The notes beneath the pieces were generated by a model that saw nothing but the letters and a program-made list of their open reading frames with translations, ran no database searches and was not told the DNA's origin. DNA of 64,000 nucleotides, taken from contig CAVUWV010000014.1 of the NCBI GenBank assembly GCA_963745075.1, positions 292,344-356,343 of the forward strand. Direction: 5' to 3'. Below are positions 45,346 through 64,000 of this stretch, one piece after another. The position numbers and the translations under genes are program-made. The DNA comes from Candidatus Hydrogenedentota bacterium (GTDB taxonomy: Bacteria > Hydrogenedentota > Hydrogenedentia > Hydrogenedentales > SLHB01). Numbering within the stretch: position 1 is the stretch's first letter; every line of letters begins with the position of its first letter.

Positions 45346-45524
45346 AGGTGATTTCCCCCTTGTTCGCCATTCGTACGGTGCCGGCCTGAAATCACGCACC
45401 CTCATGTCGCATTATGCCGATTCGGGTATGTGTCTTTTCAAGACCGCACATTTCAGCTCTTGTCTTGTGTGGGGTCCACCCGGTTGGTATTGTTATCTCC
45501 GATGTAACGTGGGAGGGGATTGGC

Positions 45525-46475
45525 GTGCATGTGCGTAAAGCAGTAATCACGGCGGCGGGGCGTGGGGTCCGTCTCTATCCGGCGGCCGATACCGTTCAGA
45601 AGGCCATGTTGCCCCTGGTGGATCGGGACGGACTCGCAAAGCCGGTCATTCAGATTATCGCCGAGGAAGCGCTGGAAAGCGGAATCGAAGAAATCTGCGT
45701 GGTGTGCGCGCCGGGGGACGAGGACGCGTACCAGCGCCAATTCGCTTCGCTCCACGAGAACCTGCTCGCCTCGTACCGTGGCGTGGACTGGGCCCAGATG
45801 CAGGCCGAACGCCTGAGTAGCGTGGTGAACCGGCTGCGGTTCGCACCGCAGCACGATGCCCTGGGGTACGGTCATGCCGTGTATTGCGCCCGCGAGTTCG
45901 TCGGCGATGAGCCGTTCCTGCTGTTATTGGGCGACCACCTCTATGTATCGCAAGTCGAAGGCAGGCGCTGCGCCCAGCAGTTGATCGACCTCGCCGTTCA
46001 GGAAGAATGCTCCGTTGCGGCCGTCCAGGCCACACGGGAACACCTGGTCGGGCGCTACGGGACCTTGTGCGGCAAACGCGTTCCACGTCACACCGGCGCC
46101 TACCAAATCGAGCGGATTATCGAAAAACCTTCCGTCAGCCAGGCGGAACTCGAACTCTATACGCCGGGACTTCGCGCCGGGTATTTTCTCTGCTTTTTCG
46201 GCATGTACGTCCTCACACCTTCCGTGTTTGCCATTCTCGAAGAGGCGGTGGAACACGCGGAGGCGGGGCAGGGGGACGTGCAATTGACGACGGCCCTCCA
46301 GGATCTCGCACTGCGCGAACGCCACTTGGCCCTCGAAGTGCGCGGGGTGCGCCATGACATCGGTTCGAAATTCGGACTGCTGCAAACCCAACTCGCCCTC
46401 GGCTTAGCGGGGCAGGACCGGGACGAAATCCTCACATCACTGGTGGAACTGCTCGTCGAATCCGGGAAACACTGA
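45525..46475 (+). CDS. GalU-like sugar-1-phosphate nucleotidyltransferase
   Basis: KAVITAAGRGVRLYP....QKAMLP, Q..ALGYGHAV, FLLLLGDH and IEKP. GTG 45525 follows GGAGG. Confidence 0.85.
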   Translation: MHVRKAVITAAGRGVRLYPAADTVQKAMLPLVDRDGLAKPVIQIIAEEALESGIEEICVVCAPGDEDAYQRQFASLHENLLASYRGVDWAQMQAERLSSVVNRLRFAPQHDALGYGHAVYCAREFVGDEPFLLLLGDHLYVSQVEGRRCAQQLIDLAVQEECSVAAVQATREHLVGRYGTLCGKRVPRHTGAYQIERIIEKPSVSQAELELYTPGLRAGYFLCFFGMYVLTPSVFAILEEAVEHAEAGQGDVQLTTALQDLALRERHLALEVRGVRHDIGSKFGLLQTQLALGLAGQDRDEILTSLVELLVESGKH

Positions 46476-46501
46476 CGTGTACGCGTTGTAGTGAGGACGC
46501 T

Positions 46502-49500: not shown

Positions 49501-49834
49501 TCCGCTGCTTCAGTTGTTCGGCCTGTCGCGCGAAGACTTGGACGGACCCGAAGCTACAATTGCCGAGTCCGTCCGCGCGGTGGCCCAGCGGGTGCCAACC
49601 TACGTGACGATCAAGGACGTCAAGCGGCGTTGGGGTCACGGGCAGGAAGACGTGTACCCCGTAGCGCAATTCGAGAAACTTTGGAGCGACATGACCGCCT
49701 TGCCGGACGTGCCATGCGGATTCCTTGCCGTCCCCCGCATGCGCGGGCAGCAACTCAAAGACCCCGACGAACTCGATCCCTGGGTTAATGACGGGAGTAA
49801 GGATTACGTAAAAGGGCTGTGCACGTTTGCCTGA
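46502..49834 (+). CDS. GHMP-type sugar kinase fused to UDPGP-family (UTP-hexose-1-phosphate uridylyltransferase-like) domain
   Basis: Kinase part: PVRLDLSHSGWSD, IPKGSRLAVS, GGGWQDS and LGGMSGGG. Pyrophosphorylase part: LAGGVGSRW...K, NPPGH, HNIDTLGA, GGGL and AQFEK. Confidence 0.78.
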   Translation: MNPFIETIASPDPVVRNRPLASLCAGQPTAALLDSSRELEAFRRASNNLYERVRATLFLHNILRFHLQESCDIPAAGAIPYAGFCDLLERRFEEAIRCFLRVIDDSGPSAALLSALAACYHHLAFQTLADQVRKSVRFSRGNQWMFRVGHAEDHPLRIRSEMLRRPEGAMLYPVLAEKTPVRLDLSHSGWSDIFFLGMDYPEGARVLNISVDLGVYGRDADVRPPVESFVRVIPEPVIRLTSIDLGVTKDVADLNDLFNFGNDYLSLLKAGVIASGVVPPSLEGTEHSLADVLARVVSPNMGLELITKINDIPKGSRLAVSTNLLAGIIAALMRATGQTSALEGSLHEEERRLVASRAILGEWLGGSGGGWQDSGGIWPGIKVIEGARAEEGDPEFGVSKGCLLPRHRLLEGDDLHPEIADRLAQSLVLVHGGMAQNVGPILEMVTEKYLLRASAEWTARQDMRSIFDNILSALRDGDVRTVAANTHTNWDGPLKTIIPWVTNHFTETVIARARASLKKDFWGFQMLGGMSGGGMAMYVAPKCHARFRDEALTIMRDVKGSMDDALPFAMEPVVYDFRINSVGTTAWVHEGSDALLPPRYYALQVPELVRRQADEIPYLRRAELDHFTARSRDYGETFGLLRTVVSSLFRVSDSATSSERLEWDRESDAVKRANGFDTVQHEQYRNDLRAGRIGLSHNRLSVETRIEDVRDTDVVQLDTGTNHRARAVKALQEGRVAVLSLAGGVGSRWTSGAGVVKAVNPFVMMAGKHRAFLELHLAKSRRVGERFGTVPPHLISTSFLTHAPVERHLRANDNFGYTGTLLLSPGRSIGQRLVPMTRDLVFLWEETPQETLDEQKQKVRESVRAALMDWSRAVGEGTDYADNLPVQRFNPPGHWYEVPNLLRNGVLAALLREHPQVETIMLHNIDTLGADLDPDALGAHLASENMLTFEVVPRRIQDRGGGLARVNGKVRLLEGLAQPREEDELKLRFYNSMTTWIQIDPLLQLFGLSREDLDGPEATIAESVRAVAQRVPTYVTIKDVKRRWGHGQEDVYPVAQFEKLWSDMTALPDVPCGFLAVPRMRGQQLKDPDELDPWVNDGSKDYVKGLCTFA

Positions 49835-49923
49835 CCCGCACCGTCATGCTGAGCGCGGACCTTTATCGAGGTTGTTGGCGGCGAAAACAGTCGAGCATGG
49901 TCGCGACGTGTATTACTCGCGAG

Positions 49924-49983
49924 ATCGAAATCGGGATCGAAATCGAGATCGAAATCGGGATCGAAATCGGGATCGGGATCGGA
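49924..49983. repeat. Hexanucleotide tandem repeat (ATCGRR)x10
   Basis: atcgaa atcggg atcgaa atcgag atcgaa atcggg atcgaa atcggg atcggg atcgga, between convergent genes. Confidence 0.9.
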
Positions 49984-50120
49984 ATTACTTTGCACTTGAC
50001 GCTTCGATCCCGATCACGATTACAGCCACGACAACCAGAATTCGCGACGATGCCCCAATTCGCCATTCTCGCCAAATCGGGGATCCATCTTAAAGAACAG
50101 AACGATCCGAGTCCGTATTC

Positions 50121-51632
50121 TTATTGCGCCACGCTCAGCGCCAGATACTTATTCACCGCGCTCAAATACGCCTTCACTGCCGCCTCGATAATGTCCGTGC
50201 TGGCGCCGGTGCCGTAGTACATCTTCCCGTCCAGCAACACCGTCACGTGGGCCTCGCCAAGAGCGTCCTTTCCGGGGGACGCAGCACGGATATTGAATTC
50301 CTGCAAACGACCGCTCACACCGACCACGCGCTCGATGGCTTGACAGGCCGCATCGACGGGACCATCGCCGACGGCCGTGTCGAGATACTCCTCCTGACCC
50401 CGCTTCAACTTCACGAGCGCCATCGCCGGGTCGTTGCCTGAGGTCCGCAATTGCTCCAGCGAATACGTCTCGAAACTCTCGTTCCGCATCGTGGCCAAGA
50501 GCACGCGAAGGTCGTCCTCGAAGATTTCCTTCTTTTTGTCAGCGAGTTCGCTGAAGCGTTGGTAGAGTCCGGCGGTTTCCTCGTCGTTCAATTCGAAACC
50601 GAGGTCGGCGCAACGTTTCAGCAGGCCGTGTTTCCCGGAATGCTTGCCCAGGATCAGTTCGTTGCTGCTCCGTCCCACGGATTCCGGCGTCATGATCTCA
50701 TACGTGATGCGGCTCGCGATGACGCCGTGCTGGTGGATGCCCGCCTCGTGGGCGAAGGCGTTGCGACCCACGATCGGTTTGTTGTACGAAATGGTCAAGC
50801 CCGTCAGGTTCCCCAACAGGCGGCTCGTGTTAATGATCTCCTCCGTCACGATGCCCGTATCGAAGGGGTAGACGTTCTGGCGCGTCTTCATCGCCATCAC
50901 CACTTCTTCCAGCGAGGTGTTTCCCGCGCGCTCGCCGATACCATTCACGCAGCACTCGATCTGCCGCGCACCACCCCGGACGGCCGCCAGGGCGTTCGCC
51001 ACCGCCAGTCCGAGATCGTTGTGGTTGTGACAGGAGAACACGACCTTGTCCGCACCCGGCACATTCGCAATCACAGTCCGGAACATTTCCTCGATTTCCC
51101 CCGGCGTCGTGTAGCCAACCGTGTCCGGCAGGTTGATCACATCCGCGCCGGCCTCAATGGCCGCCTTCGTAATCTGCGCGAGATACGCGGGGTCGCTCCG
51201 CGTCGAGTCCTCGGCTGAGAACTCCACCCGCTCCACCAGGCTCTTGGCGAGGCGCACCGCTTCCGCGGCCTTCTCCAGAACCTGCTCCCGCGTCATCCGC
51301 AACTTGTGTTCGAGATGGATGTCCGACGTTGCGATAAAGGTGTGCAATACGGGATGTTGCGCCTTCTCGACGGCCTTGGCCGCCCGTTCGATGTCGGCCT
51401 TGTTCGCGCGAGCCAATCCGGCCACCCGCGGCTTCTTTACCGCCGCCGCGACTTTTTGCACCCCTTCAAACTCTTGATCCGATGCGATGGGGAACCCCGC
51501 TTCGATGATATCCACCCCGAGTCGTTCGAGCTGCAACGCCATCTGAATCTTCTCTTTAACGTTCATGCTCGCGCCCGGCGACTGCTCACCGTCCCGCAGG
51601 GTGGTATCGAAGATCTCTACTCGCTCAGCCAC
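50121..51632 (-). CDS. leuA: 2-isopropylmalate synthase
   Basis: FDTTLRDGEQSPG, LPDTVG, HNHNDLGLA, GERAGN, FAHEAGIHQ and regulatory-domain GDGPVDA; AGGAGG before the GTG. Confidence 0.96.
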   Translation of the reverse strand: MAERVEIFDTTLRDGEQSPGASMNVKEKIQMALQLERLGVDIIEAGFPIASDQEFEGVQKVAAAVKKPRVAGLARANKADIERAAKAVEKAQHPVLHTFIATSDIHLEHKLRMTREQVLEKAAEAVRLAKSLVERVEFSAEDSTRSDPAYLAQITKAAIEAGADVINLPDTVGYTTPGEIEEMFRTVIANVPGADKVVFSCHNHNDLGLAVANALAAVRGGARQIECCVNGIGERAGNTSLEEVVMAMKTRQNVYPFDTGIVTEEIINTSRLLGNLTGLTISYNKPIVGRNAFAHEAGIHQHGVIASRITYEIMTPESVGRSSNELILGKHSGKHGLLKRCADLGFELNDEETAGLYQRFSELADKKKEIFEDDLRVLLATMRNESFETYSLEQLRTSGNDPAMALVKLKRGQEEYLDTAVGDGPVDAACQAIERVVGVSGRLQEFNIRAASPGKDALGEAHVTVLLDGKMYYGTGASTDIIEAAVKAYLSAVNKYLALSVAQ

Positions 51633-51794
51633 GACTCCTCCTTTGAACTATCCCCCGGAATTCGCCGGGGATTGGTTAGCGAATAACCTTACCAAAGCGC
51701 CGGGAACGGGTCAAAAACGAACGCGTATACCTTCTGGAATGGAATTCCCCCAAGCCAAACCGCCGCGAGTAGTCGTCCACGGGGCCGGCATCAA

Positions 51795-52298
51795 TCACTT
51801 GCTTTGCGTTACGCCCATTTGCGACCAGTCGATTTGCCGCGTGTGGAAGAAGTACGTGCCCGTCTTCTTGGACCTGAACCCGTGACCGAGATACAGTTTC
51901 AACCCCGTCGCGCCGCGGTCCACCAACGACTGAAATTTTGGTAGCATGTCCGGGTCTTCCGGGTTGACCGTCGGCCACGCCTCGAACCGCCCGGGATACC
52001 GCTCCACAATCCGCAACAACGCCGCGTTGTTCTCATCGTACCGGGTAAACCCCACGTCCTCGTTCAACGTAATTGTGAACCACGAACTCCCTACCAGCAC
52101 CGTCCGCTCGATCCCCAACTCATCCATCACCGCCAGCAGCTTCGGCACTTCGGTGTCGGACTGAATGTGCTCGTGGATATTGATCGTTTGAGCCGCACAC
52201 GGCAGAAGAATGCTTGCAAGGAGCAATGCGACAGTTACTACCGAAAGACACGCCGCTCGCAAATCACGCAAGCCGTCCCAACCCACGGTGCAATTCAT
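51795..52298 (-). pseudogene. Amidohydrolase copy 3 with in-frame 570-bp internal deletion
   Basis: Matches copies 1 and 2 from AQTINIHEH to YFFHTR, then jumps to QIDWSQMGVTQSK. The 190 missing codons include the FHVNP, CPH and GTD catalytic motifs. Confidence 0.85.
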
Positions 52299-54316
52299 CG
52301 ACGCTTGAACCGGAGTGCAACAACCATCGCGAGCACGAGGACGATTGCCACTCCCGCGACGATGTAATACCCCACTCTACTGGAAGGAGTTGAACCCGTC
52401 TCGGAAGGATCTACCGAAGGCGTTTCAACGTTTGGTTCCGATGTCGTTGGAGTGGGTTTTGGCGGTTCTTCTTTGGAGACCTGAGGAGGTGGCGCGGATT
52501 TCACCGCTGTCACCCCGTGCGGTGGTTCGCTCACCGGCGGTGCAGAGGAGGACGTAGTTTGCGTTGTTGTCGGCGATTGCATGCGAGGCCCTTGCGCGGC
52601 CATTTGTAATTCCCTCCGCTCCTCGTACGACATTGGATACAGCGAAGTTGTTCCGGAATTCTCTTCCTGTACCAAACCTTCCACGTGGAAGGAGAAGTTT
52701 CCGATTCCCGGATACGATCGATCACTGAATTCAAGGTCGTATGCCTTTCCATATCGGCCTGAACTACTATGATGTAGGAAGAGTGCAAGATTCTCCGTTG
52801 TATCGAAGTGGAGCTCCGAAACGTAGCCCGACTTAGGTGCGTAACGCATATTCGGGTCGTTCTTCTCGCCTGATGGCGCGGGCGGACCAGGGGCAATTTG
52901 CCATCCATGAAGAGCGTAAATCGACATACTCCAGTTGCGCCTTACCTGCGCCGGATCGTCGTCGTCGCTCGTCACCGATCTTGGCCGCGCTAACGCGTCG
53001 TCAGTCGTTATCTCAAACCAAAGATCGGACTTGTCGCGTTCTTCGGTGACGTTGAGTTTGGTCGGTGGTGCCGGCGCGATCGACACGCCAAAACTGAACT
53101 GGTCTCGCCATTCCTTCCACCACGCGGCTACCCTCACCCACTCGAACATTGGAACCGCTTGTGGTGCACGTTTCATGGTGATGGTCACGGGGCTTTGCGG
53201 TACCTGTCCCCGCCCCCAATAACGAGAAATCGGGTAATAGCCCGTGGCCCTTATTCCGATTGTTATCGACGAAGGAGTACTTTGCGAAAACTCACCGTTT
53301 GCATTGGTTGTTCCGCGAAACGGGCTAACCCCATTCCCCGTACTTGACCAGCCCCGACTGGAACTCCAGGTTCCCGTCACTCTAGCGCCCGCAATCGGAT
53401 CACCGTCCTCGTTCTCCACAATGATTGACAGCAACTTCTCTACCGCTGCAAGTCTACGCCCTTCCTCTCGTTTCTGTATTTCTTTCTCGGTACGTGCCTG
53501 TGGACGTTCCACGACGTGTCGATACGTGTTGCCGTCATAGACAAATCGGGCTTCCTCATTTCGTTTTCGGGAAATCTGGACTATGTCGTTAACGGCTCCG
53601 GTTTTCGGAGGCACAATGCGAAAGGCCCGAGGCACTATCTCGAAGGTCCGTTCCAACGACGGCCCGATAATGATCTTGTCGCTACACGCGCTGAAAATCT
53701 CCGCAAAATCTGGAACTCGCAGAAGCCGGAACATACCGGGTCCAATAAACTCGCGCGGATCGTCCGCAGCGTACAACGCCTCCGACTCGACCAGGAGTTG
53801 CAGAGATCCATCGCCGATTAAATCTCCCACTTCCACGTGAGAGATGTCGTTCCAGATTGCGTCCGAGTCAGGTACATAACGAAGCGTCTTCTCGGGCCCG
53901 TCCTCGGCCACCAAGAGTACCGCGTCTTTGATCGTGGCGGCTTTGGGTGCCGGTCCGCCTTCCAGATAAGTTTCCAGGTCGTCTTGGTCCCAACCCGGTT
54001 CGCGTCGCGTAAACCTATATACCGACCACTTCGGTGAATCTACGTTCTTCACCCGAACGGGAGACAAAACAAATTGCACATCACCGGCTTCCGGCCGTGA
54101 GATCGTGCCTCGAACTGCTGAACTCTTCGGATCGATGGTCGAAAGGTCTATCGTGAGACCGGGATATAACGTACGGACAAGCGTCCTTGCCATAGACTCA
54201 TCCTGGCTCAGATTTCCGGGATCCGTGACGGCCAGAGCACTTAAACTAACAATGATATAGAGCGTGGCCACACCCCATCTGTGCGCTGTAGGAAGCTGCA
54301 AGTTCTTTTCAGCCAT
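52295..54316 (-). CDS. Exported, C-terminally membrane-anchored protein with carboxypeptidase-regulatory-like domain; candidate immunity protein (paralog of 61968..63971)
   Basis: N-terminal hydrophobic signal; V.NEDGDPIAGARV..GTTNANGEF..GYY module; P/T/S linker, TM and KRR tail; TAATG overlap with the upstream hydrolase. Confidence 0.65.
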   Translation of the reverse strand: MAEKNLQLPTAHRWGVATLYIIVSLSALAVTDPGNLSQDESMARTLVRTLYPGLTIDLSTIDPKSSAVRGTISRPEAGDVQFVLSPVRVKNVDSPKWSVYRFTRREPGWDQDDLETYLEGGPAPKAATIKDAVLLVAEDGPEKTLRYVPDSDAIWNDISHVEVGDLIGDGSLQLLVESEALYAADDPREFIGPGMFRLLRVPDFAEIFSACSDKIIIGPSLERTFEIVPRAFRIVPPKTGAVNDIVQISRKRNEEARFVYDGNTYRHVVERPQARTEKEIQKREEGRRLAAVEKLLSIIVENEDGDPIAGARVTGTWSSSRGWSSTGNGVSPFRGTTNANGEFSQSTPSSITIGIRATGYYPISRYWGRGQVPQSPVTITMKRAPQAVPMFEWVRVAAWWKEWRDQFSFGVSIAPAPPTKLNVTEERDKSDLWFEITTDDALARPRSVTSDDDDPAQVRRNWSMSIYALHGWQIAPGPPAPSGEKNDPNMRYAPKSGYVSELHFDTTENLALFLHHSSSGRYGKAYDLEFSDRSYPGIGNFSFHVEGLVQEENSGTTSLYPMSYEERRELQMAAQGPRMQSPTTTQTTSSSAPPVSEPPHGVTAVKSAPPPQVSKEEPPKPTPTTSEPNVETPSVDPSETGSTPSSRVGYYIVAGVAIVLVLAMVVALRFKRR

Positions 54317-55326
54317 TATGGATTACCTGTTACAGTTTTGTTCAAGTATGTGAAGAAATCGTAGAGTATTTGGAGCGGCCTATCTTTCATGTCACTATGC
54401 TCGTACACTCCAAGGCCCAGCGTGTTGACTTGCTTGTTCTCATTAAAAACCAACACGAAAGGTGTGTTGCCCGTAGCGCGCCTCCGGGCCGGAAAGCGGT
54501 AAGCCAACCATGATTGTTCAACGGAGTGTGGAGGAGCACTACCTTCGTCCACATCATCTTCAACTGTTAAGGTCTTGTAGGCCTCGTTCCACGGCCATGC
54601 ATCTTCAACACCATCTGGCCCAAGTACCTCGTCAGCTCCGGACCACGTGTTAAAAAGCTCGGACTTATTTAGTATGGGTGCAAAATAGTCAGCCCACACG
54701 TCGTCTTGGGGCAATACTGGGCCATATCCGCCGAACGTGCCGAGCTGCCAAGGCTTGAGATTTAACATTCCAGCTTCAAATATGGTCTCATAGGAAAGAA
54801 CCTCGAGTGCATATGCTATCGACCGGTCTTCGCCCGGTTCCCCTGTGAATCTCGGTAGTGCGTTCCGGTACTGAGCTTCACCCGGGTCCCAAAGATAATC
54901 CCACATTGGTGTGTCCTTATCATACGCGCCCGAAGGCACGGCAGCTTCTGCGAGGACATATCTCCGTACGGTTCCAGGAGGAGAAAGCTCGATAGCTTTG
55001 CTCACAATCATGTTCCCGAGGCTATGCGCCACGACATTCACAGTCCCTTCACTTGCTAAGCTCTGCAAGAACGTCGCAACCCTACTCGCTTGTTCCATCG
55101 CGTTAAACACATTTCCATCGTACCATCGCAAAAAGCCCGACTCATTTCCATACCATGTTAACCCAACGAAGTTGCCTCGATATCCTGCCCAGTATAATCG
55201 TTTATACATAGTCGGAAACCACATATTTAGTGCCGCGTCCTCTGTTACGTTGAACCCATGAACAAAGACCAGTGTGGAGGACGCGTCCAGATCCAGGTTG
55301 TTGAAGACGTTGATACCAAACTTCAT
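54316..55326 (-). CDS. Alpha/beta-hydrolase (DUF900/lipase-like) variable domain; probably the frameshift-separated C-terminus of 55202..56548
   Basis: VFVHGFNV, nucleophile elbow VVAHSLG, candidate Asp (SGADEVL) and His (YEHSDM); visibly AT-richer than the flanking repeat. Confidence 0.72.
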   Translation of the reverse strand: MKFGINVFNNLDLDASSTLVFVHGFNVTEDAALNMWFPTMYKRLYWAGYRGNFVGLTWYGNESGFLRWYDGNVFNAMEQASRVATFLQSLASEGTVNVVAHSLGNMIVSKAIELSPPGTVRRYVLAEAAVPSGAYDKDTPMWDYLWDPGEAQYRNALPRFTGEPGEDRSIAYALEVLSYETIFEAGMLNLKPWQLGTFGGYGPVLPQDDVWADYFAPILNKSELFNTWSGADEVLGPDGVEDAWPWNEAYKTLTVEDDVDEGSAPPHSVEQSWLAYRFPARRRATGNTPFVLVFNENKQVNTLGLGVYEHSDMKDRPLQILYDFFTYLNKTVTGNP

Positions 55327-56548
55327 CTCCCTGAATCCTGAATTCGAGATAGGCACCTTCGGGCAAACCGCCGGGAATGTCACCAATTGAGATGCTCATC
55401 ATTGCGAGGTCTTCCAGATCGCGGATACAGGTAATCACCGCCGGTTGGCTCCATTCCGCGTCGGCACCTTCCGTATCGGTCGAGTTCTCTTCTTCCAAGT
55501 ATTCGTCATCGCCATTTACCCAGAATCGGAATGGCGTAGTTTCCTCGATTTCATCATCCAGCGCGTCGAGAGCCAGATCCGCGTTGCTGTCCACCCGCAC
55601 ATTGAGCACATCCTCGGCCAGGTGCGGGCGCGTTAACGTTTTCTGGAGTACCCGGGGCACACTTGGCGTGGCAAGCGTTGCCGTAACCCGGACGGCTTGG
55701 TGAGTAGGCCCGTTCGCGGTGGTCTCGATCACGTAGTCGGCCGTGACCCCCTCGGGGAGTTCCGGTTGGATTTCGTACGTGATTAGGTCCTCCAAGTCTT
55801 CGCCTGGCAAGAGATAATCCCTACCGTTGGTCGTACCCAACACCAATTCATGAGTCCGGTAGTGGGCGGTCAACGTCAAGTTGGGAGCTTGCGGGTTGAC
55901 CGTAGCGGTTCCCGCGTAGTCGGTGGACTCGGTACCGTCACTTCCCGTCCATTTATAGAACAGGGTTGCCTTCTCGGCGGGCGGAGGGGCCGTAATCAGG
56001 CAAATCTGGTTGGGACTCTCGGCCTCGAAATCCACAATGAAATCGGTGTCCACAGGCAGGTAACCGCTGTAAGTCCAGTTCTGGCAGCAGTATCTGAGCC
56101 CGTTCGCCGGGTCTTCGCCCGCCGGATACCCGCTCGCGTAAGTCGCGGAGATGCCGTGGTAGTAGCCGTACACGGAAGCTCCGTTCGCGGGGACGGAAGA
56201 CGTGTAGTCCGGCGGCAGGTCGACCACCGATGGCCCTACGACGGAATAGTGGTACACGACGACTTCCGTTTCCCCTTCGCCCTCGGCTTCGGCTTCGGCT
56301 TCGGCTTCGGCTTCCGCCTCGGCTTCGGCTTCGGCTTCGGCTTCCGCCTCGGATTCGCCTTCACCACCTCCGTAGACAGTAAAGTTCACGGAACAGTCGT
56401 CGGAAGCCGTCACATCGTCCACCGTCCATTCCGCGACCATGGTATGGTACGTGCCCGGCGGAAGGGCGGTCGCGCCGTAAATCTCGACGTGCCTGCCCGA
56501 CGGCCGATTGGCGTTCATGAGCGGGACCGTCGTGCCGGCTTCAATCAC
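55202..56548 (-). CDS. Cassette protein 2: constant stalk with (EA)n linker + acidic VD.N.D/FRFWVN/RDLED region; leaves frame near 55330
   Basis: The first ~300 aa are near-identical to 59169..60839 apart from the linker; GTGA overlap with the amidohydrolase stop; no signal peptide. Confidence 0.62.
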   Translation of the reverse strand: MIEAGTTVPLMNANRPSGRHVEIYGATALPPGTYHTMVAEWTVDDVTASDDCSVNFTVYGGGEGESEAEAEAEAEAEAEAEAEAEAEAEGEGETEVVVYHYSVVGPSVVDLPPDYTSSVPANGASVYGYYHGISATYASGYPAGEDPANGLRYCCQNWTYSGYLPVDTDFIVDFEAESPNQICLITAPPPAEKATLFYKWTGSDGTESTDYAGTATVNPQAPNLTLTAHYRTHELVLGTTNGRDYLLPGEDLEDLITYEIQPELPEGVTADYVIETTANGPTHQAVRVTATLATPSVPRVLQKTLTRPHLAEDVLNVRVDSNADLALDALDDEIEETTPFRFWVNGDDEYLEEENSTDTEGADAEWSQPAVITCIRDLEDLAMMSISIGDIPGGLPEGAYLEFRIQGDEVWYQRLQQPGSGRVLHTGLCSWVQRNRGRGTKYVVSDYV

Positions 56549-57510
56549 TTGGTTTGCGCTACGCCCATGTGCGACCAGTCGATGGTGCGAGTGATTTGGG
56601 TACTGGTGGGTTTCCTGGCGAGGAAGGTTTCGTAGTTGGCGTGGAGGATGCGGTCAAGGAGGTCGGGCGCCAAGTTGAGACCGTGGAGGGTCTGGCGCGG
56701 GAGGAGGGAGGACTGGTAGGTCTCTTTCCGGAGCATGTCGAGGTAGGATTGGTATCGCGCGCGGATCCAAGTCTCGTCTTTCCGGTCGTTTGCGGTGATC
56801 ACGCAGTCCGTCCCGAACATGAACCGGTCGGGATACTCCCGGAACAGCCCCCGGAACTTGCCGGGGTCGCGCGAAACCCGTTTGAGACCCGCCTTCAAGT
56901 AGTCGTCATGGCCGAAGCTGATGTCGGAGTAGAGGTTGGGGAAGGTATCCAGGAACTCCCGCAGCCGCGAGTCTTTAATGGACGACAGCATGAAGTGGGG
57001 GCAGATGACTTTCAGGTCCGGGAACTGCGTCAGCACCGAGATAAATTCTTCGGCAAACCCCGGCGTCTTTGGGCCGGGGTTTACGTGGAAACAGATCGGA
57101 ATGAAGCGTTCCTCACAATAGGCGTACAACGGCAGCATCGCCGGATCGTCCAAGGGCCGCGTGTGGAAGAAGTACTTGCCCGTCTTCTTCGCCTTGAACC
57201 CGTGGCCGAGATACAGTTTCAACCCCGTCGCGCCGCGGTCCACCAACGACTGAAATTTTGGTAGCATGTCCGGGTCTTCCGGGTTGACCGTCGGCCACGC
57301 CTCGAACCGCCCGGGATACCGCTCCACGATCCGCAGCAACGCCTCGTTGTTCTCATCGTACCGCGTAAACCCCACATCCTCGTTCAACGTAATCGTGAAC
57401 CACGAACTCCCCACCAACACCGTCCGCTCGATCCCCAAATCGTCCATCACCGCCAGCAGCTTCGGCACTTCGGCCTCGGACTGAATGTGCTCGTGGATGT
57501 TGATCGTTTG
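55647..57510. repeat. Long direct repeat copy 2 (amidohydrolase gene + constant stalk)
   Basis: Aligns by eye with 59929..61801. The offset shifts from 4282 to 4291, and the 9-bp difference lies in the EA linker. Confidence 0.92.
56273..56371 (-). repeat. Low-complexity GAAGCC/GAGGCG repeat encoding the GEGES(EA)nGEG linker
   Basis: Tandem TCGGCT hexamers on the + strand; 33 codons. Confidence 0.85.
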
Positions 57511-57618
57511 CGCCACGCACGAAATAGGACCGCTAACCAGGAGAAACAAGATGACGCCACCGCAGACTCCGCGATGCGGTGTCGAGATTGTCGCTATTGA
57601 TCCCTTGCTGTAGGGCAC
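56545..57618 (-). CDS. Exported amidohydrolase (Amidohydro_2 family) copy 2
   Basis: INIHEH, GLKLY, FHVNP, CPHF and FMFGTD; hydrophobic leader. Start is uncertain (GTG 57618 chosen; the ORF is open to 57720). Confidence 0.82.
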   Translation of the reverse strand: MPYSKGSIATISTPHRGVCGGVILFLLVSGPISCVAQTINIHEHIQSEAEVPKLLAVMDDLGIERTVLVGSSWFTITLNEDVGFTRYDENNEALLRIVERYPGRFEAWPTVNPEDPDMLPKFQSLVDRGATGLKLYLGHGFKAKKTGKYFFHTRPLDDPAMLPLYAYCEERFIPICFHVNPGPKTPGFAEEFISVLTQFPDLKVICPHFMLSSIKDSRLREFLDTFPNLYSDISFGHDDYLKAGLKRVSRDPGKFRGLFREYPDRFMFGTDCVITANDRKDETWIRARYQSYLDMLRKETYQSSLLPRQTLHGLNLAPDLLDRILHANYETFLARKPTSTQITRTIDWSHMGVAQTK

Positions 57619-58007
57619 GATAGGCTGCGCCAGTTCAGCAATTCTGAGCTTGGTTCGTGAAGTATTCAAAACGAGTTCAGTGCACGATTGTGACCTTGAC
57701 GAGGTTGCGCACGCCACCAACGAGAATTGCGCTTGTATGTATGACAGCCACTCAAACTTGCATCCTCGAAATGCGGATACAAGAGAAGGTCAACGAAAGT
57801 CGGTCGGCGCTGCATAGATCCGTGCCCTGTGGTCATTATCCGTTGAGGCAGTCCCGGTTGTATGTTGGGCAGATACAACACAAACTGCACCGATGCGTCC
57901 AGCCATTGGCTCACTACAATGAGACTTCCGCAACAATTGATTGTCACAAAGTCTTCCTGGCGGGTCTGGTGAACTGTCCCTCAGCGAGAAGTGTCGGTTA
58001 TCCGGAG

Positions 58008-59150
58008 TCATTGTGTTTTTCGTGAATGCATGGCGAGGAAACGCAACGCATCGGCTGCTCCTTTAGCGACAAATGGTTCACTATTCGATGTGTACGAACT
58101 CAGAAAGTGTTCCAGACTGTCGTCGTAGTTTGATGCGAACGGTAGTTCCATTAATGCTCTTTTTCGTACCGTAGATGGCAAATCCTCGCTTGCCACAATC
58201 TGTTTTAAGGCATCGACGTATTCTGGATCTCGCGTATGGTGCGCAACACGCGAAAGCGTTGAGGCAGTTCGCTCCCTCGTCTGCAGTTGCTCGTCAGGAT
58301 TCCTAATTGCACGCATCAATGCTTCCAGCAACCCTGCGGGGGGGGTATCTTGCATGAATTCACTTATGCCACAAAGAATCACTGCGCGAAGACGAACGTA
58401 GGGGTCGGGATCCTCCAGTCGTTCGATGATGATTTCTTGAATCGCGTCAGGAACTCGATGAATACGGTAAACTGCATCGATTGAAGCGGCGCGCTTGAGC
58501 GGATCGGAATGGGAAAGATACGAAGTGAGTATGTCGCGGGCTAGCGGAAACGTATCATACTTGCCAGCCACACAACGCAGAGCATCCACAAGCGATAGGG
58601 AAGTTGTTTCTTCTTCAATTAGCGGGACGATTTGAACGATCGTATCATCAGACAATGGCTCTATTATGGCTAAAGCGGCGAGTCCATCTCTGCGTACGAA
58701 TGGGTCGATGTCGTCCCGGGCGATTTCGCGAACAATGGTGGATTCCGCCGATTTGGCAAGATCTGGATCGTCTTTCCCGTAGATTCGGACGATGCTGATG
58801 AGTAGATCGGAAAGGGAATTTGATGTCTCCGCACTTCGTCGCGTCGCTAGGGCGTTCTTTAGGGTAGGGAGAAGTTCCGTCTTAAGAAAGGCAGTTTCCG
58901 CCGGTTCGCCACCCCCGTTCATCTTAGCGTCGGACACACTCGCGAGAAACTGACGCAGGTGCTTGACTGCCTGTGCCCTGGCCGTGTCGTCCTTCTCGAT
59001 TAAGTGTGTAAGGCTTTGACGTGCCGTGTCCAACTTGGGAGGGTTTTGGGACCCTGTTTGTGCAGCAACGAGTGGACTCCACAGTACGCCGCTACAGAGT
59101 ACAGCGGAACACAAGCATCGGCCGAACGTTGCAAAGAATCGTTTCGTCAT
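58008..59150 (-). CDS. Exported HEAT-repeat protein; candidate immunity/partner of cassette protein 1
   Basis: Signal peptide; repeats such as D.DPFVRR...AL, HSDPLKRAAS.DA, LEDPDPYVRLRAV and EPFVAKGAADAL; AAGGAG upstream. Confidence 0.75.
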   Translation of the reverse strand: MTKRFFATFGRCLCSAVLCSGVLWSPLVAAQTGSQNPPKLDTARQSLTHLIEKDDTARAQAVKHLRQFLASVSDAKMNGGGEPAETAFLKTELLPTLKNALATRRSAETSNSLSDLLISIVRIYGKDDPDLAKSAESTIVREIARDDIDPFVRRDGLAALAIIEPLSDDTIVQIVPLIEEETTSLSLVDALRCVAGKYDTFPLARDILTSYLSHSDPLKRAASIDAVYRIHRVPDAIQEIIIERLEDPDPYVRLRAVILCGISEFMQDTPPAGLLEALMRAIRNPDEQLQTRERTASTLSRVAHHTRDPEYVDALKQIVASEDLPSTVRKRALMELPFASNYDDSLEHFLSSYTSNSEPFVAKGAADALRFLAMHSRKTQ

Positions 59151-59168
59151 AAGACCTTCTCCTTTGCA

Positions 59169-60839
59169 TCACAGCGGTTCAATTATACCATCCGCTGGCG
59201 CTATGGTTTGATAAACGAGCAGGCCGGCAAGACCGACCGGCGCATTGAATGGCGGTTGAAATAGATGTAGCGTTTTGGTCGTGCCGTTCACGGGCACATG
59301 AAGATACATCTCGTACCAGGGGAACTGATCCTGCTCGCCGGACAAACTCCACGTTGTAAAATCGGGATTTGAAGCGTCCAATTCTAATCTAAATCTGTAA
59401 TCAATACTGGGCATTACCGTGCCATAAACCCCCAGACAACCAGCCTTGGCTTTAATCTCGAATACGTACTCCTTGACAGTACTCGACACAGCATTAACAG
59501 AAACTGTTGGGGTGTTATTTATGGATCCTTGCTCTTCACAATGTTTTAGGTCACAATCTTCAAGGGAGCTATCGTCCTTAGCCACTTGGGTGATTCTGTC
59601 GTCACTTCCAAGCGAGTTTTCCTGGTACACACGTGATGTGCCCGTATTTTGAAAATATGAACCCTCTATATACCCCTGGGAATTGTCTGGATTGGCGTAC
59701 GTAGTATCGGGAGCAAGACGAATCTCTTGTACCGTGCGGTATGATTCAAACGTCATACTGAAAGTACGATCGTCCCCGCCGCCGTACAAAACCGAATAGA
59801 CAGGACCCTCGGGGGGCGTACTGTAATCGCTAACACAGGAGAGGCCGGTGTTGAAATTATTTACGGAGATAAAGGTCTTGATTTGAAGATCAAATACTCC
59901 CCAATAGGACAGGTCCAGCGTTTTGACCAGTACCCGGGGCACACTTGGCGTGGTAAGCGTTGCCGTAACCCGGACGGTTTGGTGAATAGGCCCGGTCGCG
60001 ATGGTCTCGACCACGTAGTCGGCCGTGACTCCTGAGGGGAGTTCCGGTTGGATTTCGTACGTGATTAGGTCCTCCAAGTCTTCGCCTGGCAAGAGATAAT
60101 CCCTACCGTTGGAAGTGTCCAACACCAATTCATGAGTCCGGTAGTGGGCGGTCAACGTCAAGTTGGGAGCTTGCGGGTTGACCGTAGCGGTTCCCGCGTA
60201 GTCGGTGGACTCGGTACCGTCACTTCCCGTCCATTTATAGAACAGGGTTGCCTTCTCGGCGGGCGGAGGGGCCGTAATCAGGCAAATCTGGTTGGGACTC
60301 TCGGCCTCGAAATCCACAATGAAATCGGTGTCCACAGGCAGGTAACCGCTGTAAGTCCAGTTCTGGCAGCAGTATCTGAGCCCGTTCGCCGGGTCTTCGC
60401 CCGCCGGATACCCGCTCGCGTAAGTCGCGGAGATGCCGTGGTAGTAGCCGTACACGGAAGCTCCGTTCGCGGGGACGGAAGACGTGTAGTCCGGCGGCAG
60501 GTCGACCACCGATGGCCCTACGACGGAATAGTGGTACACGACGACTTCCGTTTCCCCATCGCCCTCGGCTTCGGCTTCGCCTCCGCTTCCGCCCGTGCCG
60601 CCGGCTTCGGCTTCGGCTTCGTCCCGCTTCCGCCTCGGCACCTTCGCCTTCACCGCGCTACCGTAGACAGTAAAGTTCACGGAACAGTCGTCGGAAGCCG
60701 TCACATCGTCCACCGTCCATTCCGCGACCATGGTATGGTACGTGCCCGGCGGAAGGGCGGTCGCGCCGTAAATCTCGATATGCCTGCCCGACGACCGATT
60801 GGCGTTCATGAGCGGGACCGTCGTGCCGGCTTCAATCAC
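59169..60839 (-). CDS. Cassette protein 1: constant stalk + variable C-terminal DUF3238-like domain
   Basis: Stalk is shared with 55202..56548 up to VPRVL.KTL. The unique ~250-aa tip has TFI, GDDRTF, SYRT.Q, IDY and GEQDQFPWYEMY, resembling DUF3238 from memory (not HMM-verified). Confidence 0.65.
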   Translation of the reverse strand: MIEAGTTVPLMNANRSSGRHIEIYGATALPPGTYHTMVAEWTVDDVTASDDCSVNFTVYGSAVKAKVPRRKRDEAEAEAGGTGGSGGEAEAEGDGETEVVVYHYSVVGPSVVDLPPDYTSSVPANGASVYGYYHGISATYASGYPAGEDPANGLRYCCQNWTYSGYLPVDTDFIVDFEAESPNQICLITAPPPAEKATLFYKWTGSDGTESTDYAGTATVNPQAPNLTLTAHYRTHELVLDTSNGRDYLLPGEDLEDLITYEIQPELPSGVTADYVVETIATGPIHQTVRVTATLTTPSVPRVLVKTLDLSYWGVFDLQIKTFISVNNFNTGLSCVSDYSTPPEGPVYSVLYGGGDDRTFSMTFESYRTVQEIRLAPDTTYANPDNSQGYIEGSYFQNTGTSRVYQENSLGSDDRITQVAKDDSSLEDCDLKHCEEQGSINNTPTVSVNAVSSTVKEYVFEIKAKAGCLGVYGTVMPSIDYRFRLELDASNPDFTTWSLSGEQDQFPWYEMYLHVPVNGTTKTLHLFQPPFNAPVGLAGLLVYQTIAPADGIIEPL

Positions 60840-61801
60840 TTGGTTTGCGCTACGCCCATGTGCGACCAGTCGATGGTGCGAGTGATTTGGGTACTGGTGG
60901 GTTTCCTGGCGAGGAAGGTTTCGTAGTTGGCGTGGAGGATGCGGTCAAGGAGGTCGGGCGCCAAGTTGAGACCGTGGAGGGTCTGGCGCGGGAGGAGGGG
61001 AGTCTGGTAGGTCTCTTTCCGGAGCATGTCGAGGTAGGACCGGTACCGCGCGCGGATCCAAGTCTCGTCTTTCCGCTCGTTTGCGGTGATCACGCAGTCC
61101 GTCCCGAACATGAACCGGTCGGGATACGTCATGAACAGCCCCCGATATTTTGCCGGGTCGCGCGAGATGCGTTTGAGTCCGGCCTTTAGGTAGTCGTCGT
61201 GGCCGAAGCTGATGTCCGAATACAGGTTCGGAAAGGTGTCCAGAAACTCCCGCAGCCGCGAATCTTTAATGGACGACAGCATGAAATGCGGACAAATGAC
61301 TTTCAGATCGGGAAACTGCGTCAGCACCGCGATGAACTCTTCGGCGAACCCCGGCGTCTTCGGTCCGGGGTTCACGTGGAAACACACGGGGACGAAGTGT
61401 TTCTCACAATAGGCATAGAGTGGCAGCATCTTCGGATCGTCCAAGGGCCGCGTGTGGAAGAAGTACTTGCCCGTCTTCTTGGACTTGAACCCGTGACCGA
61501 GATACAGTTTCAACCCCGTCGCGCCGCGGTCCACCAATGACTGGAATTTTGCCAGCATGTCCGGGTCTTCCGGGTTGACCGTCGGCCACGCCTCGAACCG
61601 CCCGGGATACCGTTCCACGATCCGCAACAACGCCTCGTTGTTCTCATCGTACCGGGTAAACCCCACGTCCTCGTTCAACGTAATCGTGAACCACGAACTC
61701 CCCACCAACACCGTCCGCTCGATCCCCAACGCATCCATCACCGCCAACAGCTTCGGCACTTCGGCTTCGGACTGGATGTGCTCGTGGATGTTGATGGTTT
61801 G
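59929..61801. repeat. Long direct repeat copy 1 (amidohydrolase gene + constant stalk)
   Basis: Near-identical to 55647..57510; its gene-5' part also matches ~51837..52230. Confidence 0.92.
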
Positions 61802-61885
61802 AGCCGCACACGGTAGAAGAATGCTTGCGCCGAGTAATGCGGGATTGGCAACTAAACGGCGGAACCAGGGTAACAGATATCTCAT
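60836..61885 (-). CDS. Exported amidohydrolase (Amidohydro_2 family) copy 1
   Basis: Signal peptide ending PCAA-QT; INIHEH, GLKLY, FHVNP, CPHF and FMFGTD; GAGG upstream. Confidence 0.86.
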   Translation of the reverse strand: MRYLLPWFRRLVANPALLGASILLPCAAQTINIHEHIQSEAEVPKLLAVMDALGIERTVLVGSSWFTITLNEDVGFTRYDENNEALLRIVERYPGRFEAWPTVNPEDPDMLAKFQSLVDRGATGLKLYLGHGFKSKKTGKYFFHTRPLDDPKMLPLYAYCEKHFVPVCFHVNPGPKTPGFAEEFIAVLTQFPDLKVICPHFMLSSIKDSRLREFLDTFPNLYSDISFGHDDYLKAGLKRISRDPAKYRGLFMTYPDRFMFGTDCVITANERKDETWIRARYRSYLDMLRKETYQTPLLPRQTLHGLNLAPDLLDRILHANYETFLARKPTSTQITRTIDWSHMGVAQTK

Positions 61886-61967
61886 AATGTCCTCGGAGGC
61901 TGATCTTTGAGTCGTAGCCTTCGGCTCGGTCTGACCAACTTAACTATCTTAACTATTAGCCGCAACC

Positions 61968-63971
61968 CTAATGACGCCGTTTCACAACGATGATTAGTAA
62001 GAGACCGAGACCGAGCAAAGAAATAACGGACGCGAAAATCACGACGAGAAGGTTGCGGTTCCAGCTGGAACGGCTTTTTGCCGACGAGGATTGACCGCCA
62101 ACATCGCCGTCTTCGAGACGTAGGTCTTGTGGATCTCGTGCCGGTGCTTCGACGTAAGTACGAGGCGCGGCAGCCCTCTCCACACGACGGGGAATCGTTG
62201 TCTTCGTCGGTTTGGGCTCGCGACTGTCAGATGACTGTCGGCCACCTGGAGGCGATGTGTCGCCCAGCGAACCCACCGTTTGCTGCTTACCACGACGCAA
62301 CAAGGCAAGACTGGGTGAGAGGGCGTGTAGCGAGCTACTTCCTGTGCTTTCCCTTTGGATGAGGCCCCGCATTGAGAAACCTCCCTGGTCGACTTCTCCC
62401 AGAGTACTGTCTCGAAAGATGAATTCAGTTATCTTTCCGTATCGGTCTCCATCATCGTGTCGCAAGTAGAACAATCGAGCTGGCTCCCATTGGCCCTCAA
62501 ACTCCAATTCCGTCACGTATCCTTTTTGGGGGGCAACGGTCATAAGAGAATCCGCAGTTCCGCCCTGCACCGGGTCCGGGCCGGGCGCAAGACTCCATCC
62601 GTTTCGAGCTTTGATGCGAATGCGCCATTGGGAAGTGTTGTATTCAGGCACAGTTTCCGATGTCGGAACGTCCTCCTCTCGCCGAACGGTCGTACCCGTT
62701 CTCGAGAACTCGAACCATAAATCAGCGTCTTGTTCGTTTTCGACTACCGGATAGTTGGAACCTACAGTTTCTTTGATTTGAACCCCGACATCCAGGCGAT
62801 CACGCGATTCCTTCCACCAGCCCGAAGCCGCGGTCAATTTGAACATCGGTACCGCTTCGGGCGCTTGATCTAAAACGATTTCAGTCGTGCCCTTTGGGAC
62901 ATCGCCCGCCCGCCACTTCCTCATAAGAGAGAAATAACCCTCTGCCTCAATCCGGATCAATACCGATCCAGGTGTTTCAATTTCGAACTCGCCGTCCCCG
63001 TCCGTCATTCCATCGAATCGTTTGAAGGCTGGCTCCAAGTTCATCATCGTCGTGGGTTCGCGGACCTCTCCCGAGACTATCGCGTTCGGAATAGGGACTC
63101 CCGCATTATTTACTACTCGAATCTTGAGCGTTTTGCCTCGAAGTAGCGCGTTCTTAGCGCGTACACGTTCCTGAAGTTTGGTGTCGTCGCGCACGCTAGG
63201 GGCCACTGGTTCATGCACGTAGCGTTCACCATTGTAAGAGTACACCACCTCGCTCCCGCTATGGGTAGCGGTTACCACGATGTCATTGAAGTCCCCTGAA
63301 ACGGTCTTACGAAAATCCAATTTACATCGTGGAGTTTCCACATAGACTTTCCCTGTAACGTCAGTAATTTCTTTCGACAATATACACCTGAAGGGTAGCG
63401 CAAGAGACGGTATTTGATACAGATCTGCCACGGTGCATGCAATGACCTCCCGGGGCGCGTCTACGTAATAGACTGCCCGGTAGGTCAAAAGAAGCTGCTC
63501 GGCTCCATCGCCGATCATTGGTTCAAATTTCGCGTTCGATAGGTTTACCGTCACTGCACCGCGACCTATCTCAATATGATCTACGGTGTTGGTGCTGGTC
63601 CTGTCTGCAATAATAAGGGTGGGTGTTATGATTTGTTCTGGCAATTGCTCTTTTCCAGCTAGGTATGAGCGAATCCACGTAGAGTCGATTTCGTCAGGAT
63701 TTGGCGTCAGGACAAAGAATGACCACTTTGGATGTGTCTTTGTTCTTGGTAACACACTTCTTAGGAAGAAACCGTACTCAGCGGGCCCAATGTCTCCAAT
63801 TTGCCCTTCATAGGAGCCCTCTGAATCACCATACCGATTAAGTGAAATTGTCGAATCTGGATAGATTTGGCCAAGCACACATTTTGCATATTCTTCGCCA
63901 TCTGACTGCTCATTGAAATGGGCGGCACCCAACATCACACAAATGACGCTATAGAACAAGGGCAATTTCAT
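61968..63971 (-). CDS. Exported, C-terminally membrane-anchored protein with carboxypeptidase-regulatory-like domain; candidate immunity protein (paralog of 52295..54316)
   Basis: Signal peptide; shares PKWS, IGDG..QLL, AP.AVPMF, WWKE.RD, DLWFE, GW..APGP, AP..GYV.EL.F and RYGK with its paralog; TM and KRRH tail. Confidence 0.65.
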   Translation of the reverse strand: MKLPLFYSVICVMLGAAHFNEQSDGEEYAKCVLGQIYPDSTISLNRYGDSEGSYEGQIGDIGPAEYGFFLRSVLPRTKTHPKWSFFVLTPNPDEIDSTWIRSYLAGKEQLPEQIITPTLIIADRTSTNTVDHIEIGRGAVTVNLSNAKFEPMIGDGAEQLLLTYRAVYYVDAPREVIACTVADLYQIPSLALPFRCILSKEITDVTGKVYVETPRCKLDFRKTVSGDFNDIVVTATHSGSEVVYSYNGERYVHEPVAPSVRDDTKLQERVRAKNALLRGKTLKIRVVNNAGVPIPNAIVSGEVREPTTMMNLEPAFKRFDGMTDGDGEFEIETPGSVLIRIEAEGYFSLMRKWRAGDVPKGTTEIVLDQAPEAVPMFKLTAASGWWKESRDRLDVGVQIKETVGSNYPVVENEQDADLWFEFSRTGTTVRREEDVPTSETVPEYNTSQWRIRIKARNGWSLAPGPDPVQGGTADSLMTVAPQKGYVTELEFEGQWEPARLFYLRHDDGDRYGKITEFIFRDSTLGEVDQGGFSMRGLIQRESTGSSSLHALSPSLALLRRGKQQTVGSLGDTSPPGGRQSSDSREPKPTKTTIPRRVERAAAPRTYVEAPARDPQDLRLEDGDVGGQSSSAKSRSSWNRNLLVVIFASVISLLGLGLLLIIVVKRRH

Positions 63972-64000
63972 TTGCTCGAATTCCTGTTTCTGATTCGTCT

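Follow-up and report, generated by a model that had tools for sequence, protein, structure and literature searches.

A stretch of 64,000 nucleotides from a Candidatus Hydrogenedentota bacterium (genome G000; contig CAVUWV010000014.1, C14 for short, positions 292,344 to 356,343), hereafter the window, ends in a tandem array of putative polymorphic toxin/immunity cassettes, in which variable tips and their partner genes are separated by copies of an amidohydrolase gene. Read along the minus strand, the array runs from partner A1 through an amidohydrolase, a stalk with tip 1, a HEAT-repeat protein, a second amidohydrolase, a second stalk with a hydrolase tip, partner A2 and a shortened amidohydrolase to leuA. 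Its elements are:

61968..63971, minus strand: partner A1 (667 aa), with a hydrophobic N-terminus and a C-terminal membrane anchor; putative A-type immunity protein
60836..61885, minus strand: amidohydrolase copy 1, intact, with a hydrophobic leader (Pfam Amidohydro_2, E 2e-17)
59922..60839, minus strand: orphan stalk 1, a 5'-truncated carrier fragment with an EA/EG-rich linker, 56-58% identical to residues 510-813 of the full-length carrier on contig C21
59169..59921, minus strand: tip 1 (250 aa); a homologue (36%, E 8e-27) terminates an RHS protein in genome G120
58008..59150, minus strand: HEAT-repeat partner of tip 1 (380 aa), with a hydrophobic N-terminus (Pfam HEAT_2, E 1.5e-14)
56545..57597, minus strand: amidohydrolase copy 2, start codon uncertain, mature part (56545-57513) intact (Pfam E 6e-16)
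55640..56548, minus strand: orphan stalk 2, with 0 mismatches to stalk 1 in the first 420 nt past the linker
55308..55639, minus strand: pre-hydrolase domain in the stalk frame, broken off near 55308 by comparison with homologues
54316..55302, minus strand: tip 2, a DUF900-type alpha/beta-hydrolase domain in a frame different from that of the stalk (Pfam DUF900, E 4e-7, above cut-off)
52295..54316, minus strand: partner A2 (673 aa), with a hydrophobic N-terminus and a C-terminal membrane anchor; putative cognate of the hydrolase tip
51795..52298, minus strand: amidohydrolase copy 3, shortened internally by an in-frame deletion of ~570 nt relative to copies 1 and 2
51784..51797, minus strand: remnant of the post-stop junction as it stands before stalks 1 and 2 (repeat family D6); end of the array
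50121..51632, minus strand: leuA, a flank outside the system, with 89-92% orthologues in 5/5 congeners
59929..61812, no strand assigned: repeat block copy 1 (amidohydrolase and stalk), from the alignment with copy 2
55647..57521, no strand assigned: repeat block copy 2 (amidohydrolase and stalk), from the alignment with copy 1

Amidohydrolase and stalk together form the repeated block. Its copies at 55647-57521 and 59929-61812 are 93.6% identical over 1887 columns, confirming the gene order and the repeat described in an initial annotation made from the sequence alone, and a third piece at 51836-52230, the shortened amidohydrolase, is 94% identical. That annotation had called a block of ~1.87 kb near-identical, which holds around the amidohydrolase/stalk joint (98-100%) and not in the middle of the amidohydrolase (83-89%); the repeat is a mosaic. 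Of the 100 mismatches between the copies, only 7 fall in the 720 nt surrounding the joint, a depletion matched in 0 of 20000 shuffles. This dip in the mismatch profile is in agreement with the exchange through two homology arms that had been proposed for the array. The joint itself, leading from the amidohydrolase stop into mid-stalk, is present twice, plus the remnant of a third. A site-specific recombination site at this position was considered and dropped, as the joint, the amidohydrolase flank on C21 and the C21 stalk share a 6-nt word only. A GC profile bore out that the variable modules are AT-richer: tips and partners have a GC content of 0.48-0.55 and a third-position GC content (GC3) of 0.49-0.60, compared with 0.58-0.61 and 0.73-0.83 for amidohydrolase and stalk and a GC3 of 0.79 for leuA. 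The low GC3 fits a foreign origin of tips and partners. The window ends where contig C14 ends, 27 nt short of the start of A1, and the cognate tip of A1 would sit past the contig end.

One further copy each of stalk and amidohydrolase is found in the genome, on contig C21, in the order insertion sequence (IS) transposase, tetratricopeptide repeat (TPR)-like gene (411 aa), carrier (1327 aa), partner (334 aa) and amidohydrolase. The carrier fits the earlier prediction of a full-length gene with the same stalk and, apparently, a signal. Judged by eye, its N-terminus is hydrophobic; it contains five stretches of InlB B-repeats (Flg_new_2, E 3e-29), an EA/EG linker and a stalk 56-64% identical to the window stalks, and its tip weakly matches lysozyme-like domains (E 0.02-0.09). 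Relative to this protein, the window stalks begin only near residue 510 and hence are orphans truncated at the 5' end; their open reading frames (ORFs) could start at a GTG that overlaps the amidohydrolase stop, without a signal peptide. The unit of TPR-like gene, carrier, partner and amidohydrolase is intact on C21 and occurs in decayed versions in three congeners. On all other contigs of the assembly, neither a second TPR-like gene nor a further stalk nor the gene that flanks leuA in congeners was found. The stalk occurs in 4 of 135 genomes of the phylum (G000, G003, G057, G107), where this one stalk type bears tip 1, the hydrolase, the lysozyme-like tip, a deacetylase and one unnamed tip. 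A search of 1.84 billion representatives gave six matches, of which four were repeat-rich noise, one was the protein of the window itself and one, P0005, was a true relative; no homologue was found in metagenome contigs, and none outside the phylum in another search.

Several observations adjoin this locus. In the congener G002 an orphan carrier remnant behind an A-type gene (L050, G002:C255, 3545-3740) ends at ~residue 505 of the C21 protein, and its closeness to the start of the window orphans (~510) may reflect either chance or a breakage hotspot. A transposase-like element with ~180-nt repeats, of which G000 has many copies, splits the toxin locus in three congeners (L010 4650-6390, L035 10557-11463, L050 1-700). 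Between it and the TPR-like gene at L010 (G003:C57, 5668-6033) lies a 121-aa ORF that has no Pfam match and by eye resembles small immunity proteins of the cytoplasmic type. A second, shorter LeuA-like gene (G000:C21:96426-97619) is located ~5 kb from the C21 toxin locus, which, set beside the C14 array abutting leuA, is probably a coincidence. A pilMNOPQ-like cluster with secretin (G000:C21:118066-125222) lies 7 kb downstream of the same locus. RHS-fragment arrays, with tips followed by signal-bearing genes, are present at G000:C10:396361-402851 and G000:C27:213433-217601 and look like ordinary Rhs orphan loci.

In cassette 1, tip 1 has a homologue in one of 134 other genomes of the phylum (G120), at the C-terminal end of an RHS-repeat protein, and the gene after that homologue is a HEAT gene homologous to the one in the window (24%, 360 aa, E 1e-11). 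The initial annotation had named the tip DUF3238-like. No hidden Markov model (HMM) support was obtained for this, with no match to PF11579 (DUF3238) at E<=10, whereas a weak fold match from a low-confidence model points in that direction. The top-ranked fold was PDB 3C5P (BAS0735), which we take to be a DUF3238 structure (VIA Z 7.9, next 5.0; 141/194 residues, root mean square deviation 4.0; predicted local distance difference test score (pLDDT) of the model 34), and it was also rank 1 in Foldseek (E 0.095). A single-sequence model, with a pLDDT of 31.6, was too poor for use. Searches with the tip against PDB sequences and with two sequences against proteins were empty, and the best score in the Atlas was 0.84.

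Cassette 2 had been described as the same stalk with an alpha/beta-hydrolase tip. The hydrolase stands, as the tip matches DUF900 above the cut-off and retains the Ser, Asp and His motifs aligned in its homologues, but stalk and hydrolase are in different frames and do not form one ORF. Between the pre-hydrolase motif and the start of the hydrolase there are 50.3 codons in the window, compared with 176 residues in G107, 177 in G008 and 168 in P0001. We infer an out-of-frame deletion of ~120 codons near 55308; a one-base insertion as the source of the frame change was ruled out, because ~120 codons are missing. A 348-nt contig from run X1, exact over 55308-55514 and then unlike the window for 141 nt, is read as an undeleted allele of this cassette. 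Hydrolase homologues were detected in 3 of 134 other genomes of the phylum. G107 has an intact fusion of the hydrolase to the same stalk, with an A-type gene after it; a hydrolase remnant precedes an A-type gene in G002, as does a short one in G005 (E 6e-4), and in G008 the gene after the hydrolase was not detected as A-type. A1 and A2 are 29% identical. G005:C417 has a tandem of three A-type genes, one of which is 49% identical to A1 over the C-terminal half. Genes of the A type were found in 9 of the 135 genomes, once as three in tandem and several times standing alone, and a PDB search with the A-type partner gave no match.

Across relatives, tips and partners segregate together, in line with the polymorphic tip/partner architecture first proposed. 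In 496 comparisons among 32 hand-assembled carrier/partner pairs, homology linked the tips 10 times and the partners 8 times, and all 8 partner homologies coincide with tip homologies; 0 of 10000 label shuffles reach this, a test that overstates the effect because the pairs are hand-picked and related by kinship. Four of the eight partner homologies came to light through tip or partner searches, one through the stalk search and three through neighbourhood alone. The clearest case is a pair of loci from two congeners, G107:C509 and G112:C606, which share 91% identity across the TPR-like gene and the N-terminal half of the carrier, have unrelated tips and partners, and are similar again past the partner (next gene 87%, flank 89% identical). 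Together with the various tips on one stalk, they provide the different tips that had been expected in relatives. Partners without a toxin, lone or in tandem, are found in G005:C417, G111, G112, G133, G047 and G037. At L141 (G112:C606) and L138 (G107:C509) a 173-aa membrane gene follows the partner, in the slot that the amidohydrolase takes in genus g1, and in G112 a spare partner (42% to that of G107) is located behind it.

The TPR-like gene occurs in 39 of the 135 genomes, at 60 loci, of which 35 were read with usable downstream DNA, 9 lie at a contig edge and 16 fell outside the reading. A B-repeat-type carrier follows it at 28 of the 35 readable loci: 23 of the next genes match Flg_new_2 (20 above cut-off), against a background of 3 such genes in this genome, and 5 more are homologous to those carriers at the N-terminus. 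The remaining loci comprise one gene that has a DUF7689 tip and a hydrophobic leader but no B-repeats, three decayed loci and three without a carrier. In the complete genome G051 the TPR-like gene is followed by a 4423-aa protein with B-repeats, Ig domains and RHS repeats, whose tip is URI-like by motif (by eye) without a Pfam match, and then by an Imm26 gene (E 5e-14). RHS repeats are also present in carriers of G111:C482, G013:C267 and G120. Peptidase_M74, Peptidase_M15, polysaccharide deacetylase, HExxH peptidase-like, DUF7689 and RHS-borne tips are among those found downstream of the TPR-like gene or on B-repeat carriers of related type. Searches with the TPR-like protein returned generic TPR look-alikes only; NCBIfam gave a weak BamD match in 2 of 20 such proteins and nothing else, and a single-protein scan matched two congeners only. 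The suggestion of an undescribed family is supported in that there apparently is one, although its marks are the TPR-like gene and the B-repeat carriers, both outside the window, rather than the repeated enzyme. At one locus (L103, G054:C13, 3114-8848) the TPR-like gene is followed by a 314-aa ORF, which is Cys-rich and has an EG tail, and by a radical SAM gene, possibly a modified-peptide cluster sharing the same accessory protein.

We consider it probable that the array in the window represents the orphan tail of a polymorphic toxin/immunity locus, with the amidohydrolase as passenger and recombination arm, and the family to which it would belong reads as an undescribed, Maf-like, Sec-class polymorphic toxin family. 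Apart from the composition of the pair set, the following points weigh against this. A carrier is missing at three of the 35 readable TPR-like loci, and at one of these three a radical SAM gene is present instead; any Pfam match at E<=0.1 was obtained for 5 of 24 tip pieces, all weak; and neither tip 1 nor any of the A-type partners matched a named toxin or immunity family. Several carriers run off their contigs or end adhesin-like, for example with PKD, Calx-beta and CARDB domains in G119. The identical core of the repeat could also be explained by gene conversion or an assembly consensus. The assembly lacks the head of the C14 array, and a repeat is bridged neither by a read nor by any piece from three low-depth contig sets, so that the order of the units rests on the assembly.

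The adhesin-like parts raise the question of whether the carriers are instead variable surface enzymes or adhesins for feeding or attachment, with the partners as tip-specific chaperones, anchors or regulators and the array as a reservoir of surface variation. B-repeat, Ig, PKD and Calx-beta domains are all adhesin parts, a polysaccharide deacetylase is among the tips, and the partners A1, A2 and that of G003 are membrane-anchored and large for immunity proteins. However, an Imm26 gene and RHS cores occur within the same family, and partners are kept alone or in tandem after loss of the tip, which is sensible for immunity proteins and not for chaperones. Moreover, the sole cytoplasmic-type partner, the Imm26 protein without a hydrophobic leader, follows an RHS tip, and most other partners are hydrophobic-led. 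We regard this explanation as improbable.

The role of the amidohydrolase bears on a second alternative, in which the enzyme functions in the system in this genus, for example by salvaging or detoxifying attack products, and a need for dosage maintains its copies. Copies 1 and 2 match Amidohydro_2 above the cut-off (copy 3 has no match), each copy has a hydrophobic leader, and metal-ligand-like motifs are kept in the two intact ones; the nearest structure is an uncharacterised protein. Over 310 codons copies 1 and 2 are 91.7% identical in nucleotides, with a synonymous divergence (dS) of 0.31 and a ratio of nonsynonymous to synonymous divergence (dN/dS) of 0.10, consistent with purifying selection. 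The dS of 0.31 indicates that they are not a fresh duplication; as dS to the congeners' copies is 0.52-0.64, above that between the two, they look more like alleles from close lineages. The gene was found in 29 of 61 relatives searched and stands behind a partner gene in four genomes of the genus, G000 (two loci), G003, G004 and G005. Of nine loci of the genus, four have it adjoining a carrier or a partner. In contrast, it is missing at 38/38 carrier or partner loci of other genera, a different gene takes its position in genus g45, and the amidohydrolase loci of other genera, read with 1.5-kb flanks, have unrelated neighbours and no carrier match in 16/16 cases. The third copy is deleted, and the purifying selection may date from single-copy loci of the donors. 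A function in the system thus seems very unlikely to us. As the gene stands beside partners in this genus and at 0/38 loci in other genera, we view it as a genus-specific passenger, whose own role as an enzyme is probably unrelated to the toxin system. Among the genomes read, its tandem repetition is limited to this one, which removes the repeated enzyme as a hallmark of the family; it is a local accident with a probable mechanical role as homology arm. A clean joint would be expected from a single origin of the joint and its later copying, with double crossovers exchanging the DNA that separates a stalk from the next amidohydrolase.

That the tandem array is an assembly chimera of one locus's alleles from co-occurring strains, as a metagenome-derived genome (89.7% complete), the contig break 27 nt before A1, the 420-nt exact stretch common to the copies and the variant departing at 55308 in one run might suggest, is very unlikely, given that alleles of one locus offer no reason for an amidohydrolase-stop/mid-stalk joint seen twice plus a remnant, that contamination is 0.8% and contigs are long, and that orphan arrays occur also in G057, G058, G026 and G002. 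Furthermore, the three contig sets, which come from one study and are possibly the source of the assembly, contain exact pieces of tip 1, the HEAT gene, the hydrolase and A1, as well as pieces that bridge A1 and amidohydrolase 1 and that span the copy-3 deletion with its leuA-side end (run X3, 51741-51887).

The array lies at a rearranged site, as the upstream neighbour of leuA in the four congeners with readable upstream DNA is another gene, absent from this assembly. On its other side, leuA is separated from the next gene by a dispersed intergenic repeat with a 12-nt tandem core (49840-49985), copied on at least seven other contigs. A nucleotidyltransferase-like gene and then a 1110-aa ORF follow (45414-49834), both conserved beside leuA in congeners; by eye, the latter looks like a sugar kinase fused to a UTP-glucose-1-phosphate uridylyltransferase-like domain.

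Among known systems, the Maf loci of Neisseria, composed of mafA, mafB and mafI plus mafB-CT cassettes (Jamet et al. 2015, PMC4287609), offer a close parallel. As far as the available parts of that paper go, both have a lineage-restricted accessory gene of unknown role directly upstream of the toxin gene, a toxin (putative here, with an apparent signal peptide) with constant N-part and variable C-tip, a cognate immunity gene, downstream orphan cassettes, and no homology to a known secretion machine. In contrast, the carriers here are built from repeats (B-repeat, Ig, sometimes RHS), whereas MafB as presented there has none; the accessory gene here is helical and TPR-like, most partners are predicted to be exported, and a passenger enzyme gene is repeated between the cassettes. 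DUF1020, MafA and BIL gave no match in Pfam scans of the window, the C21 and other carriers and the upstream gene, which returned Flg_new_2 and TPR.

With the type II secretion system (T2SS)/Sec-dependent toxins (Zhang et al. 2012, PMC3482391) the family shares, in the parts of that survey at hand, a signal peptide (apparent here) as trafficking signature, the toxin-then-immunity order, alpha/beta-hydrolase, metallopeptidase and URI-fold tips, HEAT and Imm26 immunity proteins, and tandem immunity genes; a pairing of Tox-URI1 with Imm26 is given there. Table 1 of the same survey lists neither a signature neighbour gene for the Sec-dependent class nor the InlB B-repeat among its repeats, whereas here a conserved TPR-like gene precedes the carrier, and stalk and A-type partner match nothing named. 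The orphan modules of contact-dependent inhibition (CDI) and Rhs systems (Poole et al. 2011, PMC3150448) are likewise 5'-truncated toxin fragments keeping variable lengths of the carrier, each with an immunity gene, arranged in arrays, often IS-broken and exchanged between strains, but in the portion of that work considered no unrelated whole gene is repeated between modules. A further difference is that the window stalk has no RHS repeats and the genome no match to CdiB/ShlB (the ShlB control was silent too) or to a type VI secretion system (T6SS) sheath. The statement that no Rhs hallmark is present holds for the stalk, with no RHS/YD or haemagglutinin repeats found by Pfam in the window ORFs or the C21 carrier; it does not extend to the family, in which the tip 1 homologue and several carriers have RHS repeats. 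In this genome, 89.7% complete, VipB/TssC (T6SS) and WXG100 (type VII secretion system, T7SS) gave no match with positive controls, and seven secretin matches were obtained; the N-terminal signal of the carriers was judged by eye. A literature search in which most subscription journals lay outside the scope yielded nothing joining Hydrogenedentota with polymorphic toxins or interbacterial competition, and nothing on polymorphic toxins with InlB B-repeats, DUF7689 toxins, DUF3238 or BAS0735; the accessible part of one preprint (bioRxiv 10.1101/2023.11.21.568195) does not mention the phylum.

For the orphan-tail reading of the window, the following mechanism can be proposed. The carrier would be exported through its Sec-type signal and displayed on the cell, where its tip would attack the envelope of neighbouring cells, as the dominance of lipase-like, lysozyme-like and murein-peptidase-like tips suggests, while the exported partner would neutralise the matching tip. 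In the array, a single non-homologous join of the amidohydrolase 3' end to mid-stalk may have duplicated the unit of stalk, tip, partner and amidohydrolase, with later copies reusing the joint. Incoming DNA of related lineages could then swap tip and partner through two crossovers, located in the stalk and in the amidohydrolase. The orphan cassettes may give extra immunity now, and their tips may serve as spares, loadable onto the full-length carrier by recombination in the stalk. From its fixed position, our guess is that the TPR-like protein is an export or display factor. A bolder version is possible and, taken as a whole, doubtful: the phylum would own a delivery route independent of T6SS, T7SS and the type V secretion system (T5SS), with the TPR-like protein as export or display factor for B-repeat carriers of 300-4400 aa, with or without an RHS core; modules of tip and partner would be swapped between the carrier and the conserved gene after the partner; the passenger-built array in this genome would be self-extending, each of its cassettes having two homology arms; and tip 1 would be an antibacterial toxin. 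If this were true, tip 1 would provide a first function, as an antibacterial toxin, for the 3C5P/DUF3238-like fold.

On the favoured reading, the locus would belong to an apparently undescribed family of interbacterial weapons in an uncultured phylum. The TPR-like marker gene retrieves dozens of new candidate tip/partner pairs, most of them without a named domain. The array itself would be a sequence example of a bystander gene that was turned into the second recombination arm of a toxin cassette and amplified alongside it.

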